Shown here: positions 7,978-48,728 of the stretch, piece after piece | Position numbering within the stretch: position 1 is the stretch's first letter | How the letters are laid out: every line of letters starts with the position of its first letter | Virus record (IMG/VR): IMGVR_UViG_3300042691_050360 | Span: 64,001 to 128,000 of that record | Length of the DNA stretch: 64,000 nucleotides | Direction: 5' to 3' (one strand) | Source of the DNA: a virus | Notes under the pieces: model-generated | The model's input: the letters and a program-made list of their open reading frames with translations, nothing else | Told to the model about the DNA's origin: nothing | The model's database searches: none | Made by a program: the position numbers and the translations under genes

Positions 7978-8955
7978 TTACTGCCCCAATCCCCAAAGAG
8001 GATATTGAACGAAGAGATTTGGATTAGCCCCTAGACCAACCGTTCCGCCTGTAAATCCGCGAAGAGCACCATTGGTTAGATTCATTCCAAATGCCGGGGT
8101 GGCACTTACACCATACTCCACTGCAGTTGGTGTGAAGGCGAGAAACTTACCCAATTGGTAATATTTTGCCGAGCCGTCTGCGTGTCCAACAATAACTCCG
8201 CCGAATGCAGCTCTTACTTCATCCGCTGGTACAGTTTGAAGTGCAGAGTAATTGGCTGTTTGCTTGCCGAGCTCCCATGCCCAGAACTCTCTTACAGCAG
8301 GAGGGAAAACGGTGACTGAATTTGATGAAGCATCTGTGCCGTATGCAATTGGCACAACACCGATCTGGAGGTTGCCAGATTCCATGAGAATACCTGCCGC
8401 AGAAGTATTTGGTAGAGCTGTCATACTTCCACCAAGCCAGCTATTCCGGAACATGGTTGATGATCCTGGTGCTCGATTCCAGGTGTTAAGCTGACCAGTG
8501 AGAGAGGTGTTGAGGAGATAGCTTCCGGTTACCTGTCCGCATTGTGCCCAGCTTCCAGCAGGACAGCTAGGGGTAGATGCATTGGTATTTCCGCGAGATG
8601 TGTTGAAGTAGAGTTGGACATTCTTAACATAAGGCTGTGTCCACTTCTGCCAAGAGAAGTGATTAACTCTGTGTGCAAATCCTGCTGATACTCCGCAGTT
8701 TACTGTACCAACTACGTTGTTGAGGGCACCGTTAAGACTAGAGTTTGCGATGCAATCATCATTGCGTGGATACATATCGTCATTATCGGCACCATACATG
8801 ATGACGCCAAGAGAGATCTGTTTTTGATTACTGATGCCGGTGGCTTTCTTTGCTGCTGCCTTGGCTTGAGCGAAGACGGGGAAGAGGATTGCCGCGAGGA
8901 TTGCGATAATCGCAATCACGACAAGAAGTTCGATTAATGTAAAAGCTTTTTTCAT
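7978..8955 (-). CDS. Prepilin-type N-terminal cleavage/methylation protein with H-X9-DG-type C-terminal motif (DUF1559-like)
   Basis: MKKAFTLIELLVVIAIIAILAAILFPVFAQAKAAAKK...SNQKQI.LG..MY..DNDD.YP; GHADGSAK near the C-terminus. Confidence 0.9.
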   Translation of the reverse strand: MKKAFTLIELLVVIAIIAILAAILFPVFAQAKAAAKKATGISNQKQISLGVIMYGADNDDMYPRNDDCIANSSLNGALNNVVGTVNCGVSAGFAHRVNHFSWQKWTQPYVKNVQLYFNTSRGNTNASTPSCPAGSWAQCGQVTGSYLLNTSLTGQLNTWNRAPGSSTMFRNSWLGGSMTALPNTSAAGILMESGNLQIGVVPIAYGTDASSNSVTVFPPAVREFWAWELGKQTANYSALQTVPADEVRAAFGGVIVGHADGSAKYYQLGKFLAFTPTAVEYGVSATPAFGMNLTNGALRGFTGGTVGLGANPNLFVQYPLWGLGQ

Positions 8956-36267: not shown

Positions 36268-36281
36268 TCTATACGAAAATC

Positions 36282-36356
36282 TGGCACCGGAGTTGGGGTT
36301 CAAACCCAAGCGATAAGGTTTTGGAGACCTTTCGGAAGCAATCTACTCTCTCCGGT
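36282..36356 (-). tRNA. trnW: tRNA-Trp(CCA)
   Basis: Anticodon arm aaggt-CTCCAAA-acctt; encoded CCA; atypical D arm. Confidence 0.75.
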
Positions 36357-36359
36357 GTA

Positions 36360-36434
36360 TGGAGCTCATGGCTAGAATCGAACTAGCTACATTCCTTTTG
36401 CAGAGGAAGCCGTTTGCCAATTGGGTACATGAGC
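36360..36434 (-). tRNA. trnC: tRNA-Cys(GCA)
   Basis: ttcct-CTGCAAA-aggaa; U discriminator; CCA. Confidence 0.9.
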
Positions 36435-36441
36435 TTAAATC

Positions 36442-36515
36442 TGGGAGGAAATGAAAGAATCGAACTTTCATCAGAGGCGTATGATACCTCCGCTTTACCA
36501 TTAAGCTAATTTCCC
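36442..36515 (-). tRNA. tRNA-Met/Ile(CAT)
   Basis: gaggt-ATCATAC-gcctc; cloverleaf with CCA. Confidence 0.8.
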
Positions 36516-36521
36516 GTAAAA

Positions 36522-36596
36522 TGGTATCCACGCTTGGATTTGAACCAAGAACCTCAATCTTGTAAGGATTTTGCTCTACCGTTGAGCTACGCGGAT
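36522..36596 (-). tRNA. trnV: tRNA-Val(TAC)
   Basis: aatc-CTTACAA-gatt; CCA. Confidence 0.85.
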
Positions 36597-36600
36597 GGAC

Positions 36601-36698
36601 TGGCACCCATTCATGGATTCGAACCACAATTAACTCTTCCTTACTGGGCACCTTGATGCACAGAAAAGAGAGTTGTCCTGCCTTTAGACGAAATGGGT
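36601..36698 (-). tRNA. tRNA with 24-nt anticodon-loop insertion, most likely Gln(TTG); Glu or Lys alternatives
   Basis: Intact acceptor, D and T arms; stem actct/agagt encloses 31 nt; removing 24 nt can give CTTTGGA. Confidence 0.65.
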
Positions 36699-36704
36699 GT
36701 GAAA

Positions 36705-36776
36705 TGGTGTTGCCCGAGGAATTGAACCCCGCCTTCTCCCGCGAAGAGACGCTCTACCAACTGAGCTAGAAGCAAC
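36705..36776 (-). tRNA. Degenerate tRNA-like gene with shortened anticodon arm, identity undetermined
   Basis: tagctcagttggtagagc D arm, ggttcaattcc T arm, CCA; arm tctc-TTCGCGG-gaga. Confidence 0.5.
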
Positions 36777-36784
36777 ACAAGAAA

Positions 36785-36811
36785 TGGAGGAGGGAAGAGG
36801 TTTCGAAACTT
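36785..36811 (-). pseudogene. 3' fragment of a tRNA (T loop to CCA)
   Basis: ttcgaaa-cctct-tccctcc-t-cca without a 5' half; abuts the endonuclease ORF. Confidence 0.55.
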
Positions 36812-37508
36812 GGTATATGTAAATATGCTGTCAAACAACATTACTAGAGAGTTCCTACAAAAGTTCAAGTCCCGTGAAAGAGTGCCTTTAGTGTGTTTCG
36901 TATGTGGCGGAGATTTTTTACGCCCTAAAAACGATCTACTAAATTCTTTATCCTTGGGACGTAATATAGTTTGTCAAAGATTATGTGGATATAACCACTG
37001 GTTGCTGGCAACCAACCGAGGTAAGGATCATTGTGTTTGCCAGGTATGTGGCACTGAATACGTCAGATCACGATCTCAAGTGGCGAGAACTCCAAATAAG
37101 TTTTGCTCTAAATCTTGCTCAGTAACGTGGCAAAACAAACACAAAACCACCGGTTACCGACGTTCCAAACTTGAGAAGTATCTTGAAGAAAAGATTCGCA
37201 AAGAGTTTCCAGCTTTACAGTTTGAAGCTAATTGCCGGTCTGTCATTGATTACGAACTTGATTTCTATTTTCCGACTTTGAAGTTCGCAATAGAAGTAAA
37301 CGGGATTACGCACTATCGTCCTGTTTACAGCGAAGCCCGGTTCAAGCGTACAAAGGAGATTGACGCTGAAAAGAAATTACGTTGCAGTGAACTAGGTATC
37401 ACCTTGTATGTGATACCTAATACCATTCATGCCTTTACAGCTGAATTCGGGGATATAACATGGAGTGAGATGCTGGATTCAGCTGTAAGCCCGCTACGGC
37501 CTACTTAG
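36810..37508 (+). CDS. Zinc-finger plus PD-(D/E)xK (Vsr/DUF559-like) endonuclease, probable homing endonuclease in the tRNA array
   Basis: CFVCG, CQVCG, FCSKSC; SKLE...ELDFYFP.LKFAIEVNG..HY; antisense to the tRNAs. Confidence 0.75.
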   Translation: MVYVNMLSNNITREFLQKFKSRERVPLVCFVCGGDFLRPKNDLLNSLSLGRNIVCQRLCGYNHWLLATNRGKDHCVCQVCGTEYVRSRSQVARTPNKFCSKSCSVTWQNKHKTTGYRRSKLEKYLEEKIRKEFPALQFEANCRSVIDYELDFYFPTLKFAIEVNGITHYRPVYSEARFKRTKEIDAEKKLRCSELGITLYVIPNTIHAFTAEFGDITWSEMLDSAVSPLRPT

Positions 37509-37540
37509 ATTAGCAATATAGCTCAGCACACCCAATATCC
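37450..37540 (-). pseudogene. Degenerate copy of tRNA-Ser(GCT) overlapping the endonuclease 3' end
   Basis: Shares ggata..tggagt..gat, acttagattagcaat and aatatcc with 37640..37730. Confidence 0.55.
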
Positions 37541-37548
37541 TCAAAATA

Positions 37549-37636
37549 TGGTGGGGAATGTAGGATTTGAACCCACGGAACCTTTCAGTCCTGCTGTTTT
37601 CAAGACAGCTGCAATCGGCCTCTATGCGAATTCCCC
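37549..37636 (-). tRNA. trnS: tRNA-Ser(TGA)
   Basis: gctgt-CTTGAAA-acagc; long variable arm; CCA. Confidence 0.9.
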
Positions 37637-37639
37637 GTA

Positions 37640-37730
37640 TGGCGGATACACTGGAGTACGATTCCAAAGCCTTTTACAGCCCACTTAGATTAGCAATCTA
37701 GTCCGGCAAACCTGTCCGGTTGTAATATCC
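37640..37730 (-). tRNA. trnS: tRNA-Ser(GCT)
   Basis: taga-TTGCTAA-tcta; long variable arm; atypical D and T loops; CCA. Confidence 0.8.
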
Positions 37731-37737
37731 TTAAATC

Positions 37738-37813
37738 TGGTGCTCCCCTCCGAGTACGATCCGGAAACCTTCCCATCTTCAGCGGGACGCTCTACCAATT
37801 GAGCTAGAGAAGC
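37738..37813 (-). tRNA. trnF: tRNA-Phe(GAA)
   Basis: tcccg-CTGAAGA-tggga; CCA. Confidence 0.9.
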
Positions 37814-37821
37814 ACATAATC

Positions 37822-37913
37822 TGGAGCGAGATGAGAGATTCGAACTCTCAAAATCTGCTTCCTGTAATGAGATCACAGGAAGGCAGGCGTTTTACCATTA
37901 AAACTAATCCCGC
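37822..37913 (-). tRNA. trnG: tRNA-Gly(TCC) with 17-nt anticodon-loop insertion
   Basis: GCGGGAT acceptor, U discriminator; cctgc-CTTCC[tgtgatctcattacagg]AA-gcaga. Confidence 0.8.
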
Positions 37914-37942: not shown

Positions 37943-37976
37943 AAAAAAACCCCGAAGATCTTGCCTTCGGGGTTTT
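37943..37976 (-). terminator. Attenuator terminator upstream of tRNA array 1
   Basis: aaaaccccgaag-gcaagat-cttcggggttttttt. Confidence 0.9.
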
Positions 37977-38002: not shown

Positions 38003-38065
38003 CTAGCCATTACCCTGAAGGGTTGACCACATAAAGCATCCTTGACTAAATTGCGAATTTCTCAT
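38003..38065 (-). CDS. Leader peptide 1 (MRNSQFSQGCFMWSTLQGNG) of tRNA array 1 attenuator
   Basis: SD AGGA 9 nt upstream; codons 4-14 match downstream tRNAs; its ccttcagggt is complementary to the terminator 5' arm. Confidence 0.8.
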   Translation of the reverse strand: MRNSQFSQGCFMWSTLQGNG

Positions 38066-39454: not shown

Positions 39455-39531
39455 TGGTGGAGCCGACGGGGTTCGAACCCGCAAGACTTCTGATTGCAAA
39501 TCAGACGCTTTCCCAAATAAGCTTCGGCCCC
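39455..39531 (-). tRNA. trnA: tRNA-Ala(TGC)
   Basis: tctga-TTTGCAA-tcaga; G3-U70 pair; CCA. Confidence 0.92.
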
Positions 39532-39537
39532 GAAAAC

Positions 39538-39614
39538 TGGTCAGTTAGGTGAGATTTGAACTCACACACCTTTGAGTCACAATCAAAGGGCTCTACCATT
39601 TAAGCTACTAACTT
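39538..39614 (-). tRNA. trnH: tRNA-His(GTG)
   Basis: tttga-TTGTGAC-tcaaa; CCA. Confidence 0.85.
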
Positions 39615-39617
39615 GTG

Positions 39618-39694
39618 TGGTGTCGTGTGAAAGACTCGAACTTTCAAATTTCAGGTTCTCAACCTGTTGCCTCTACCAATTTGGCTAACACGAC
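39618..39694 (-). tRNA. trnL: tRNA-Leu(GAG), short variable loop
   Basis: cagg-TTGAGAA-cctg; CCA. Confidence 0.85.
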
Positions 39695-39697
39695 GTT

Positions 39698-39777
39698 TGG
39701 TACCAGCGGCGAGATTCGAACTCGCAAAAGCTACGGTTCTAAACCGTATTGTTGTACCATTCACTTGCCACGCTGGT
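39698..39777 (-). tRNA. trnL: tRNA-Leu(TAG), short variable loop
   Basis: tacgg-TTTAGAA-ccgta; CCA. Confidence 0.85.
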
Positions 39778-39785
39778 AGAAATCT

Positions 39786-39870
39786 TGGTGGAGACAGTAG
39801 GACTCGAACCTACGAACCGATTAAAGCACTGGGTTACAGCCAGTTGTAATTGCCGCTATACGATGTCTCC
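39786..39870 (-). tRNA. trnY: tRNA-Tyr(GTA)
   Basis: actgg-CTGTAAC-ccagt; long variable region; CCA. Confidence 0.9.
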
Positions 39871-39879
39871 AGAAAAACT

Positions 39880-39958
39880 TGGTCTGCGTGACAAGATTCG
39901 AACTTGTGTGCTTGACCTCCCAAGGGCCACGAGGTAGACCAGACTCCTCAACACGCAG
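39880..39958 (-). tRNA. trnP: tRNA-Pro(TGG)
   Basis: tggcc-CTTGGGA-ggtca; C1-G72; CCA. Confidence 0.88.
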
Positions 39959-39967
39959 ATAAATTTT

Positions 39968-40049
39968 TGGCTGGATGAAGGTCGTCCTTAGTCATCCACT
40001 TACGGGTCACCACTTTGGAGAGTTTGATTTCAACCCTGGCACCACCCCG
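39968..40049 (-). ncRNA. Unclassified structured RNA ending in CCA at the head of tRNA array 2
   Basis: Hairpin tggatga..aagg-acga-ccttcatcca followed by GCCA; not a cloverleaf. Confidence 0.35.
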
Positions 40050-40071
40050 ATATTTAATTGTCAATGTTCGT

Positions 40072-40112
40072 AAAAGAAAAACCCCCGAAAGATTTTAGTC
40101 CTTCGGGGGTTT
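40072..40112 (-). terminator. Attenuator terminator upstream of tRNA array 2
   Basis: aaacccccgaagga-ctaaaa-tctttcgggggtttttctttt. Confidence 0.9.
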
Positions 40113-40138
40113 GCAGCTTGTCGATACGCAACGAGCCA

Positions 40139-40192
40139 CTACCCCGAAGAGGGGGCGAGTGCTGGATATAGATGGCTGAGCGTATTGATCAT
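40139..40192 (-). CDS. Leader peptide 2 (MINTLSHLYPALAPSSG) of tRNA array 2 attenuator
   Basis: SD AGGA upstream; codons 7-12 CAT CTA TAT CCA GCA CTC match the six downstream tRNAs; cttcggggt pairs with the terminator 5' arm. Confidence 0.88.
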   Translation of the reverse strand: MINTLSHLYPALAPSSG

Positions 40193-40258
40193 TTTTGTGT
40201 TCCTAAATTGTTTTACAAGAGTTAAGACGATTATTCCTCTAAGAAAGTTTCATCTTTT

Positions 40259-46815: not shown

Positions 46816-47748
46816 ATGAAAAAAATAGTTGTATCACAGCCCTTGCCTGCAGCTGCCCCAGGTGGTATGGGAGAAGCTGTAGACGCCGTAGTGGATATCG
46901 CCGGGGGCTCTGTTAAGCCAATCGTTGATAAAGTGCGTAAGATAGATTTTAACAAAGATACACCTGGAAGCAATGCGTTAACAAACTACACGGAATTTAA
47001 TGAATTAGCTAATACTTTTAAGAATGTTTTTCATGTAACTGATCCTAAATTTACTGATGCCGAAAAGCTAAGGGAGTATTTTTTAGATGCTGGTTTATTT
47101 AACGATCTTAAAGGCCTTGTTCCTTTCGCCACCAATCTTAAAGATACGCTATTTGCTATCTCTGGGTATTCCAGGTTTGAGCCGAATATTGCCCAATTAC
47201 TGGCAAATTTCGCCCTTAACCTCTTAGATAGAACAAGAAGTTTTGACCAGGTTAACCGAAAACTCCAAGACATCAAAGACAAAGCATCTGACACCGAGCG
47301 ACCAAAAGACGCTTATATTATTGCTTTATTAAAAGGTGATTATCAAACCGCAAGCTTACTCCTATTACTATCTGATATTGGCAAGATGGTTTCTACAACA
47401 ACCCTAAAAGATATTCAAGAGACACAGCAGCTTGCAAATAAATTATTGGGACCAAAATCCCAGGAACTTCTCGACGCACAATATCTTGACAATCAGCAGG
47501 CTGCAGCAAATGCTGCAGTTCTAAAAAATTCTCTAGCAAAGTTCCGTGCCATGATACCCATGGGTGTTCAGCAAGCTCAATGGCGTAAACAAATTAATCA
47601 GTTCGGTGAATCTTTTTTCAAAAGTGATGCGGGTAAAGGTATCTTAGCCTCTCCCATCGTGACTCAACTTGGTGCGGCTGCCGCTGGCTTTGAGTCACTC
47701 AAAGATGTTTATAAGTTTCCTTTAAAGGAAACATTTGGGGGTAAATAA
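46816..47748 (+). CDS. Helical hypothetical protein, possibly virion-associated
   Basis: 310 aa; IVVSQ N-terminal motif; first of a coupled operon. Confidence 0.6.
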   Translation: MKKIVVSQPLPAAAPGGMGEAVDAVVDIAGGSVKPIVDKVRKIDFNKDTPGSNALTNYTEFNELANTFKNVFHVTDPKFTDAEKLREYFLDAGLFNDLKGLVPFATNLKDTLFAISGYSRFEPNIAQLLANFALNLLDRTRSFDQVNRKLQDIKDKASDTERPKDAYIIALLKGDYQTASLLLLLSDIGKMVSTTTLKDIQETQQLANKLLGPKSQELLDAQYLDNQQAAANAAVLKNSLAKFRAMIPMGVQQAQWRKQINQFGESFFKSDAGKGILASPIVTQLGAAAAGFESLKDVYKFPLKETFGGK

Positions 47749-48728
47749 TGTTTAATTATAAGAAGTTTGTTTTCAAGAAGTTCTCCCAGGCCCAACCCGC
47801 TCAGACACAATCTGGAAAAATTTTAAATGAATTAGACCCAAATAAGTCCACTGGCAAGATCTTAGATGAATTAGATACAAATAAGTCCGTTGATAAAAAA
47901 GTTGAAGAGCAAGTTAGTGCTAGAGCACAAGAAAAAGCAAGGTCGGTTAATAATGCCAAGCGTCAGCTGGGTGTTTTTGAAGATACTTTTGAAAAGCTTG
48001 GTGAAGCCCTCCAAGAAGTCTCTAAGGACTCTCCTTTTGCATCGGTAGAGCCTGGCAACCTAGTTAAGGCATGCGATTCAGTCGCCAAGACTCTTAATAA
48101 AGAAAATGTCATTACTCCTGATGAAATTCAGGATATATATCAACAATATATAGAAGCTTTCCAAAATATGCTATCAGCTTCGCAATCGCTTTTTACTGAA
48201 TATGATGAAGTTAAAAACGACGATGAAGTATTAAAGCTCCTTAATCTTGGCGGCGAGATCAGAAGCGATTCAGGGGCCCCGGCATCTCCTCAGACAAAAG
48301 TGAATGAACCAGATCGGTTAGAAATGAAATCGTTTCTTGATGCCGAGATTCAAAAAATACAAAACAAGATTAAGTTGAATGAGCTTAAGATCACAAAGCA
48401 ACAACGCCAATTTATGCAGTTTGATATTCTGTATCAAGATATGTTTAACTATTATTCTTTACTTTCTAGAATTTGCGAGACAAAAACCCGATATGATGCA
48501 CAGGTTGAGCAGTTTAAATTTGGGAGTCCTGAAGATTATCAGGCTTTGCTGAGCTATTATGAATATGGTATGTCTTTGCTTCAAATTATGGCACCGAAGG
48601 CAGCTAGTATCTTTCCCACGAATGCAAAAAATATACAATCTTACTATTCGATGTTAATAGAACAGGCTCGGGCTGAAATTAGTAAGCTTTCCATTGATCC
48701 GCTTAAGGCACTGTACGGAAGGAAGTAA
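47748..48728 (+). CDS. Coiled-coil hypothetical protein
   Basis: 326 aa; FKKFSQ motif; 13-aa tandem repeat GKIL.ELD.NKS. Confidence 0.6.
   Translation: MFNYKKFVFKKFSQAQPAQTQSGKILNELDPNKSTGKILDELDTNKSVDKKVEEQVSARAQEKARSVNNAKRQLGVFEDTFEKLGEALQEVSKDSPFASVEPGNLVKACDSVAKTLNKENVITPDEIQDIYQQYIEAFQNMLSASQSLFTEYDEVKNDDEVLKLLNLGGEIRSDSGAPASPQTKVNEPDRLEMKSFLDAEIQKIQNKIKLNELKITKQQRQFMQFDILYQDMFNYYSLLSRICETKTRYDAQVEQFKFGSPEDYQALLSYYEYGMSLLQIMAPKAASIFPTNAKNIQSYYSMLIEQARAEISKLSIDPLKALYGRK

Follow-up and report, generated by a model that had tools for sequence, protein, structure and literature searches.

A probable codon-dependent transcription attenuator gating tRNA genes in a jumbo phage

Among known attenuators, the thrL and ilvGMEDA leaders are multivalent. 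In attenuation, a leader containing control codons is translated, its RNA can form 1:2, 2:3 and 3:4 helices, and stalling of the ribosome leads to read-through, as described for pheL (PMC3082878). Aminoacyl-tRNA synthetase genes also have attenuators, including pheST in gammaproteobacteria and the trpS and leuS candidates in Streptomyces (PMC1262725). The reason for tRNA genes in phages has been debated for decades, codon compensation being set against replacement of tRNAs destroyed by the host (PMC10264068), and one proposal is that phage tRNAs compensate for depletion of host tRNAs (PMC10264068, PMC7824862). The systems in these two papers resemble the one described here in having jumbo-phage tRNA clusters with divergent tRNA bodies, but neither paper mentions a leader or an attenuator for phage tRNA arrays. 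A full-text literature search, whose coverage was thin for subscription papers, returned no description of an attenuator of tRNA genes. To our knowledge, attenuation has so far been known for biosynthetic and synthetase genes.

The DNA analyzed here (the window) is a 64,000-nt stretch of the 166.5 kb partial virus record IMGVR_UViG_3300042691_050360, and the loci studied in it are on the minus strand. A short ORF, leader 2 (40139..40192, minus strand; 17 codons and TAG), defined by its sequence and by comparison of orthologues, precedes tRNA array 2 (39455..39958, minus strand), in which genes for Pro(TGG), Tyr(GTA), Leu(TAG), Leu(GAG), His(GTG) and Ala(TGC) were identified with ARAGORN and Rfam RF00005. 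Sequence and structure modeling indicate that leader 2 is likely a trp-type multivalent, ribosome-driven transcription attenuator which gates a phage tRNA operon in a codon-dependent manner. As such, it would be a variant of the known attenuation mechanism with a new kind of target, tRNA genes. With trpL, hisL, pheL and leuL of E. coli and Salmonella it has in common a short (here putatively) translated leader, control codons, a set of three helices and a terminator. In contrast to these amino-acid operon leaders, leader 2 would control tRNA genes only and not enzymes, is located in a phage, and would sample five unrelated amino acids without a tandem run, and the phage codon set is rewritten for each tRNA block; tandem codon runs do occur in single-amino-acid units of related phages. 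None of the leaders reached the cut-off of any Rfam family; His_leader (RF00514), the best, scored 30.3 bits and Phe_leader (RF01859) 21.1 bits, below the gathering cut-offs of 49 and 55 bits. Synthetase attenuators are alike in that part of the translation machinery is regulated by ribosomes that sense charged tRNA, whereas the phage leader would target tRNA itself, with many tRNA species regulated together. T-box riboswitches, too, use a terminator/antiterminator switch that reports tRNA state by codon-anticodon match. However, no translation is involved in T-boxes, where uncharged tRNA is bound directly by a specifier loop, whereas leader 2 is an ORF with a Shine-Dalgarno sequence, and the T-box Rfam model had no match in the window or related loci.

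This Shine-Dalgarno sequence, AGGA (40201..40204, minus strand), is located 8 nt before the ATG, is kept in orthologues and gives an anti-SD duplex of -4.2 kcal/mol. Farther upstream, a two-box promoter-like element, GAAAC-N17-CGTC (40226..40251, minus strand), was identified by pattern match and conservation; it resembles ECF-sigma promoters and is a putative promoter, from which transcription would start ~25-30 nt before the leader 2 ATG. It has only this match in the 166 kb genome, and in 8 orthologues both boxes are invariant at the 17 nt spacing while the spacer sequence varies. Two sigma-70-family proteins are encoded by the phage (G000:C1:44794-45522 and 47470-48024), and one of them had an ECF hit; they are candidates for recognizing the leader promoter. 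The first-pass annotation had claimed that six consecutive codons correspond to the six tRNAs of array 2, one each, and both the sequence and the ARAGORN calls bore this out: codons 7-12 (the sensor block; 40157..40174, minus strand) are His CAT, Leu CTA, Tyr TAT, Pro CCA, Ala GCA and Leu CTC. Four of these match the anticodons by Watson-Crick pairing, while His and Tyr are read by wobble, and codons 5, 13 and 14 (Leu, Ala and Pro) also specify amino acids served by array 2. The chance figures for this match are after-the-fact statistics for one locus, with independent support coming from the comparative test given below. Under genome codon usage with wobble allowed, as that annotation had suggested calculating, the probability of a one-each run was 1.4e-7 per six-codon window and about 1.5e-6 per 17-codon ORF; among 48,208 windows of six codons taken from 101 long ORFs of the phage, none had such a run, and it appeared at a frequency of 3.7e-5 when the bases of leader 2 itself were shuffled.

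Downstream of the sensor block, an intrinsic terminator (3:4; 40071..40112, minus strand) has a 14 bp stem of -22 kcal/mol and a U tract. In the predicted antiterminator (2:3; 40101..40150, minus strand; -24.6 kcal/mol), the end of the ORF (40150-40142) pairs with the terminator 5' arm (40108-40100) around an inner hairpin; the sensor block ends 7 nt before the antiterminator strand (40149-40141, complementary to 40108-40101), a geometry that held as first described. A predicted protector hairpin (1:2; 40137..40161, minus strand) pairs codons 11-14 with the ORF end and, if leader 2 is untranslated, would be extended by pairing of codons 1-7 with the post-stop region. In four haplotypes it was predicted to be the fold of lowest energy for the growing transcript until the terminator arm emerges, and the full-length fold containing it had a z of -5.5. 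The predicted helices thus follow the classical 1:2, 2:3, 3:4 order of attenuators. The terminator is far more stable, and therefore switching must be kinetic. In one relative, the segment inside the leader 2 terminator hairpin (L096:3290-3325) has the opposite orientation to that in the window; this hairpin micro-inversion leaves the stem intact.

We modeled the ribosome as a 12 nt mask from the A site in equilibrium structure predictions, with assumed footprints of 9-15 nt. The terminator 5' arm was sequestered with a probability of 0.83-0.89 when the ribosome was at codons 2-11, 0.65 at codon 12, 0.33 at codon 13 and about 0 from codon 14 on; a 9 or 15 nt footprint moved the switch point by one codon. 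Codon 12, which ends the sensor block, was therefore the last modeled ribosome position that keeps the antiterminator. The annotation had assigned masking of the antiterminator to a terminating ribosome; masking was reproduced in the model, but its restriction to termination was not, because any ribosome past codon 13-14 would mask the strand. Taken alone, the leader 2 antiterminator was not significant against base shuffles (32/200), and in shuffled leader 2 sequence the arm was sequestered at a mean probability of 0.55.

The promoter-like element, Shine-Dalgarno sequence, leader ORF, three mutually exclusive helices, terminator and tRNA genes are seen in the sequence, and from them we infer translation of leader 2, its coupling to transcription, the direction of control and the trigger. 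RNA polymerase would start ~25 nt upstream of the leader 2 ATG with a ribosome behind it. With fast decoding of the His, Leu, Tyr, Pro and Ala codons, the ribosome would move past codon 13-14 and cover the antiterminator strand, the terminator would fold, and the array 2 tRNAs would not be transcribed. If charged, functional tRNA is scarce for any of these codons, slow reading would make the ribosome linger at codons 5-12, allowing the ORF end to pair with the terminator 5' arm and polymerase to read through into the tRNA genes. Without translation, the protector hairpin would form first and termination would be favored. Array tRNAs are thus probably made only when ribosomes decode the matching codons slowly, and newly made tRNAs would relieve the decoding delay in a negative feedback loop, leader 2 acting as an OR gate over the tRNA set of array 2. 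Its likely purpose would be to supply substitutes for tRNAs destroyed or withheld by the host in the course of infection.

A paralogous putative attenuator, leader 1 (38003..38065, minus strand), has 20 codons with a Ser, Gln, Gly, Cys, Phe, Met, Trp, Ser run and is followed by a predicted terminator (37946..37976, minus strand). Its predicted switch is at codon 12-13, and its antiterminator was better than 200 of 200 shuffles. Downstream, tRNA array 1 (36280..37913, minus strand) starts with Gly(TCC, with an insert), Phe, Ser(GCT), Ser(TGA) and Ala(CGC) and continues with a second insert-bearing tRNA, Val, Met, Cys and Trp, the Trp(CCA) gene being read by eye and by homology to L001. In lineages with a different leader 1, Val/Ile codons were gained alongside tRNA-Ile. 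Several tRNA genes of the window are unusual. The tRNA-Gly(TCC) gene (37822-37913, minus strand) carries a 17-nt insert right 3' of the anticodon that pairs back with the anticodon and is also found in L094 and L096 but not in L098; a group I intron was rejected, 17 nt being too short. The second tRNA (36601-36698, minus strand) has a similar ~24 nt hairpin insert in the anticodon loop, and its anticodon reading is ambiguous; the insert is kept in L098 with compensating changes, and relatives have Gln(TTG) at that place. Both tRNA-Leu genes of array 2 (39618-39777, minus strand) are without the long variable arm of the L094, L096 and L001 Leu tRNAs, and its tRNA-Pro has a low score and an odd D arm. 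A 232-aa zinc-finger/endonuclease-like ORF without a Pfam hit is inserted antisense in array 1 (36810-37508, plus strand), adjoining a second, degenerate Ser(GCT) copy (37460-37540, minus strand). Similar insertions interrupt the arrays of L091 and L093.

For the comparative test, we used 14 leader-terminator units from the window and from the jumbo phages G023, G025, G027 and G030, whose capsid proteins were 66-74% identical. Units were picked by position and Shine-Dalgarno strength and not by codon content, with hand-set boundaries, and they are not fully independent because the phages are related. Each of the 14 leaders sits 20-34 nt before a terminator, and the leaders are unrelated in sequence among relatives. 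Their codons followed the tRNAs downstream. For example, Leu-rich leaders precede Leu tRNAs, a Met/Val/Ile/Ala leader precedes the same tRNA set, an Asn run precedes Asn tRNAs, and a leader with Tyr-Pro-His repeats precedes His/Tyr/Pro tRNAs. The true leader-array pairing scored 35.7, compared with a permutation mean of 9.3 and a maximum of 28.6; no permutation out of 200,000 was as good, either for the 14 units or for the ten units of distinct type, and a leader's own array ranked first in 10 of 14 cases. In all 14 units, the predicted antiterminator was lost once the ribosome was at the stop codon. Besides, matched codons were concentrated before the predicted switch (106/140 in the ten positions before it, 20/84 after it; p 3e-14), and antiterminators exceeded shuffles with a family combined p of 4e-8. 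The attenuator reading of leader 2 is supported because its predicted helices are in the classical order, the predicted switch coincides with the last of the matched codons, and related phages repeat the design with other codons and tRNA sets.

Except for these units, several tRNA clusters differed. Five further leaders, chosen by eye and kept apart from the 14 automatic units, are codon-matched mini-ORFs before Gln/Arg/Cys and Lys units (L062:1200-1534, L066, L063:2000-2316, L071 and L072), and a scan of these units found no U-tract terminator; they may use another output, such as Rho-dependent or processing control. A leader was absent from G004, G014, G020, two small G003 clusters and the Met-Glu pair of the window's genome. 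This Met(CAT)-Glu(TTC) pair (G000:C1:427-616) lies directly behind GGAAC-N17-CGTATAA, an element like that of leader 1, has no terminator and is ungated. L005, L079, L082, L085, L087 and L088 were discarded as leader units, being chance pattern hits with no tRNAs. CUA-anticodon tRNAs (amber readers) and tmRNA were found next to the Lys units of G023, G030 and G027 (L063:1066-1856, L072:1629 and L068:11229); TAG recoding or suppression is possible. A group I intron was present in the tRNA region of L061.

Pattern and protein searches identified leader 2 orthologues in 22 further contigs, representing six haplotypes in which length, start and stop are fixed and third codon positions account for 8 of 16 variable sites. 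Five codons (5, 10, 11, 13 and 15) vary only synonymously, whereas codon 12 alternates between Leu and Tyr, both of which are in the array. Every haplotype has one GCA and one CCA, at shifting positions. The CTC codon also occurs in lineages without tRNA-Leu(GAG), and one lineage with Leu(TAG) has no CTA/CTG codon and only CTT. An exact isoacceptor match was confined to the tRNA-Leu(GAG) lineage, in which codon 12 is CTC, and represents one event. The isoacceptor-level match proposed in the first-pass annotation consequently stands for the leader of the window but not as a general rule, as orthologous leaders vary synonymously; judging from the haplotypes, one-each exact matching is specific to the window's lineage, and the conserved match is mainly at the amino-acid level. 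The tRNA genes themselves turn over. Where relatives agree at 97-99% of positions in the leader region, their Pro, Leu, Tyr or Ala tRNA genes can be only 57-69% identical, compared with a background of 62% for unrelated tRNAs, and in three relatives with near-identical leader regions (L094, L096 and L098) tRNA order differs while the six anticodons are the same. From these alignments, the anticodon set and not the tRNA genes is conserved, and turnover is cassette-like, unrelated copies with the same anticodon being swapped in. In one lineage, a ribonuclease-family gene (PF00545; L100:4556-4981) is located just upstream of a conserved 307-350 aa protein, which precedes leader 2 and had no Pfam match.

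What the switch responds to is a separate matter, and one possible account retains the attenuator but assigns it a general signal, amino-acid starvation or a global slowdown of translation late in infection; this sub-case denies an anti-defense purpose. The codon match would then be a feedback outcome, since only codons served by the downstream tRNAs self-limit, and the leader would be blind to isoacceptors and to cleaved versus uncharged tRNA. Both the synonymous variation of sensor codons across haplotypes and the predominance of the match at the amino-acid level agree with this, as does the established mechanism, in which a stalled ribosome cannot distinguish why a tRNA is missing (PMC3082878). 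However, no biosynthetic route is common to His, Leu, Tyr, Pro and Ala, and tRNA output would not cure starvation. Codons decodable by a unit's own anticodons were also in excess, 207 against 190 expected, although this z of 3.6 is modest, the units are not independent, and the synonymous expectation applied the codon usage of the window's genome to all units. In addition, GCA and CCA are retained as they shift position, and an arms race is suggested by how quickly tRNA bodies are exchanged while the anticodon set stays fixed. Isoacceptor-level sensing of a host attack on tRNAs is conceivable, and we put it forward tentatively. Equally speculative is a wider idea, that jumbo phages have a programmable surveillance layer in which each tRNA block has a leader that checks, at isoacceptor resolution, how the codons of its own tRNAs are read. 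A block would perhaps be turned on when the host cleaves, de-modifies or withholds tRNAs, and the leader codons might then list the targets of defense. Turnover of tRNA bodies fits an arms race; starvation or loss of modification would trip the same switch.

Some observations count against codon-dependent attenuation itself. Leader 2 has one to three codons per amino acid, unlike the tandem runs of trp, his and phe; leader 1 has no codon for the Val and Ala tRNAs of array 1; and three contigs that lost Leu, His and Ala tRNAs to an insertion retain a full leader 2. A real caution is that the ilvB and leuA leaders of Streptomyces are attenuator-like, yet codon changes had little effect (PMC1262725).

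These codon-insensitive leaders are also a precedent for an unlikely alternative, that a phage or host antitermination factor (Nus-type, acting via a boxA-like motif) or a downstream promoter sets read-through, with the leader modulating it or being vestigial. Just past the terminator, a motif that presumably resembles the rRNA boxA (40057..40069, minus strand; repeat D10) is conserved in orthologues and also occurs after terminator 1, and conservation would favor the antitermination account. But the motif lies 3' of the terminator, hence it could not act on it, and it is missing from most other units. It had no clear copy beside the rRNA genes of two genomes of the candidate host family, Fimbriimonadaceae. 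In two lineages tRNA-Pro begins 11 nt past the motif, therefore there is no room for a second promoter; TTGACA after the terminator was rejected as a -35 box, as it has no properly spaced -10 and the start would fall within tRNA-Pro in these two lineages. In the window, an 82-nt structured RNA (39968..40049, minus strand) lies between the terminator and tRNA-Pro and would be the first product of the gated unit. It contains a promoter-like AAAC-N17-CGTA match at 40025, downstream of the terminator, which could let transcription bypass the terminator in the window's lineage. Neither factor nor promoter explains why codons track tRNA content in the 14 units and stop doing so at the predicted switch. 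The 82-nt RNA finishes with a 7 bp stem and NCCA, resembling the acceptor end of a tRNA. Compensatory pairs occur at 5 of 24 positions, with compensatory changes in L098, and the RNA is present in two lineages and cleanly absent from two others. It had no Rfam match, and the motif was not found in IMG/VR contigs.

Even less probable is nascent-peptide stalling of the ermC or tnaC type, in which the ribosome is arrested by a peptide and a small ligand, leaving the codon match a secondary role. Pro-rich peptides can slow ribosomes, and a His-x-Tyr-Pro-Ala-x-Ala-Pro-Ser-Ser-Gly tail is conserved among leader 2 orthologues; however, this tail overlaps the RNA helices, which explains its conservation, and the leaders of other units have no common peptide motif, each following its own tRNA set. 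Finally, chance, i.e., a short intergenic ORF before an ordinary terminator, would be compatible with the frequency of short ORFs and G/C complementarity near terminators and with the sequestration seen in shuffled sequence, but it is effectively refuted by the permutation test and by conservation of the ORF.

With regard to its source, the window's virus encodes a capsid-like protein whose relatives (58-98% identical) are on contigs of up to 479 kb, and it is therefore a jumbo phage. The leader region had no DNA match in the GenBank phage collection, thus there is no cultured relative. One phage gene was 69-71% identical over its full length to Armatimonadota genomes, which suggests Armatimonadota as the host phylum. 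A protein with a prepilin-type N-terminal motif (7978-8955, minus strand), 70% identical to Armatimonadota proteins, gives a clue to the host. Inheritance of the design from the host was considered and rejected: none of 20 tRNA loci on a Fimbriimonadaceae chromosome is preceded by a leader-terminator unit. Promoter-like boxes stand immediately before these loci, and one of the 20 has an upstream terminator followed by a -10-like box.

Leader ORFs of 12-46 codons escape gene callers, and they are useful to confirm anticodon calls and the boundaries of phage tRNA units. If the proposed mechanism is true, attenuation would extend to tRNA genes, with the product feeding back directly on its own sensor, and each leader would be a ready-made reporter of functional tRNA levels. 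Phage tRNAs would then be an on-demand repair supply, and the debate on their role would become directly testable.
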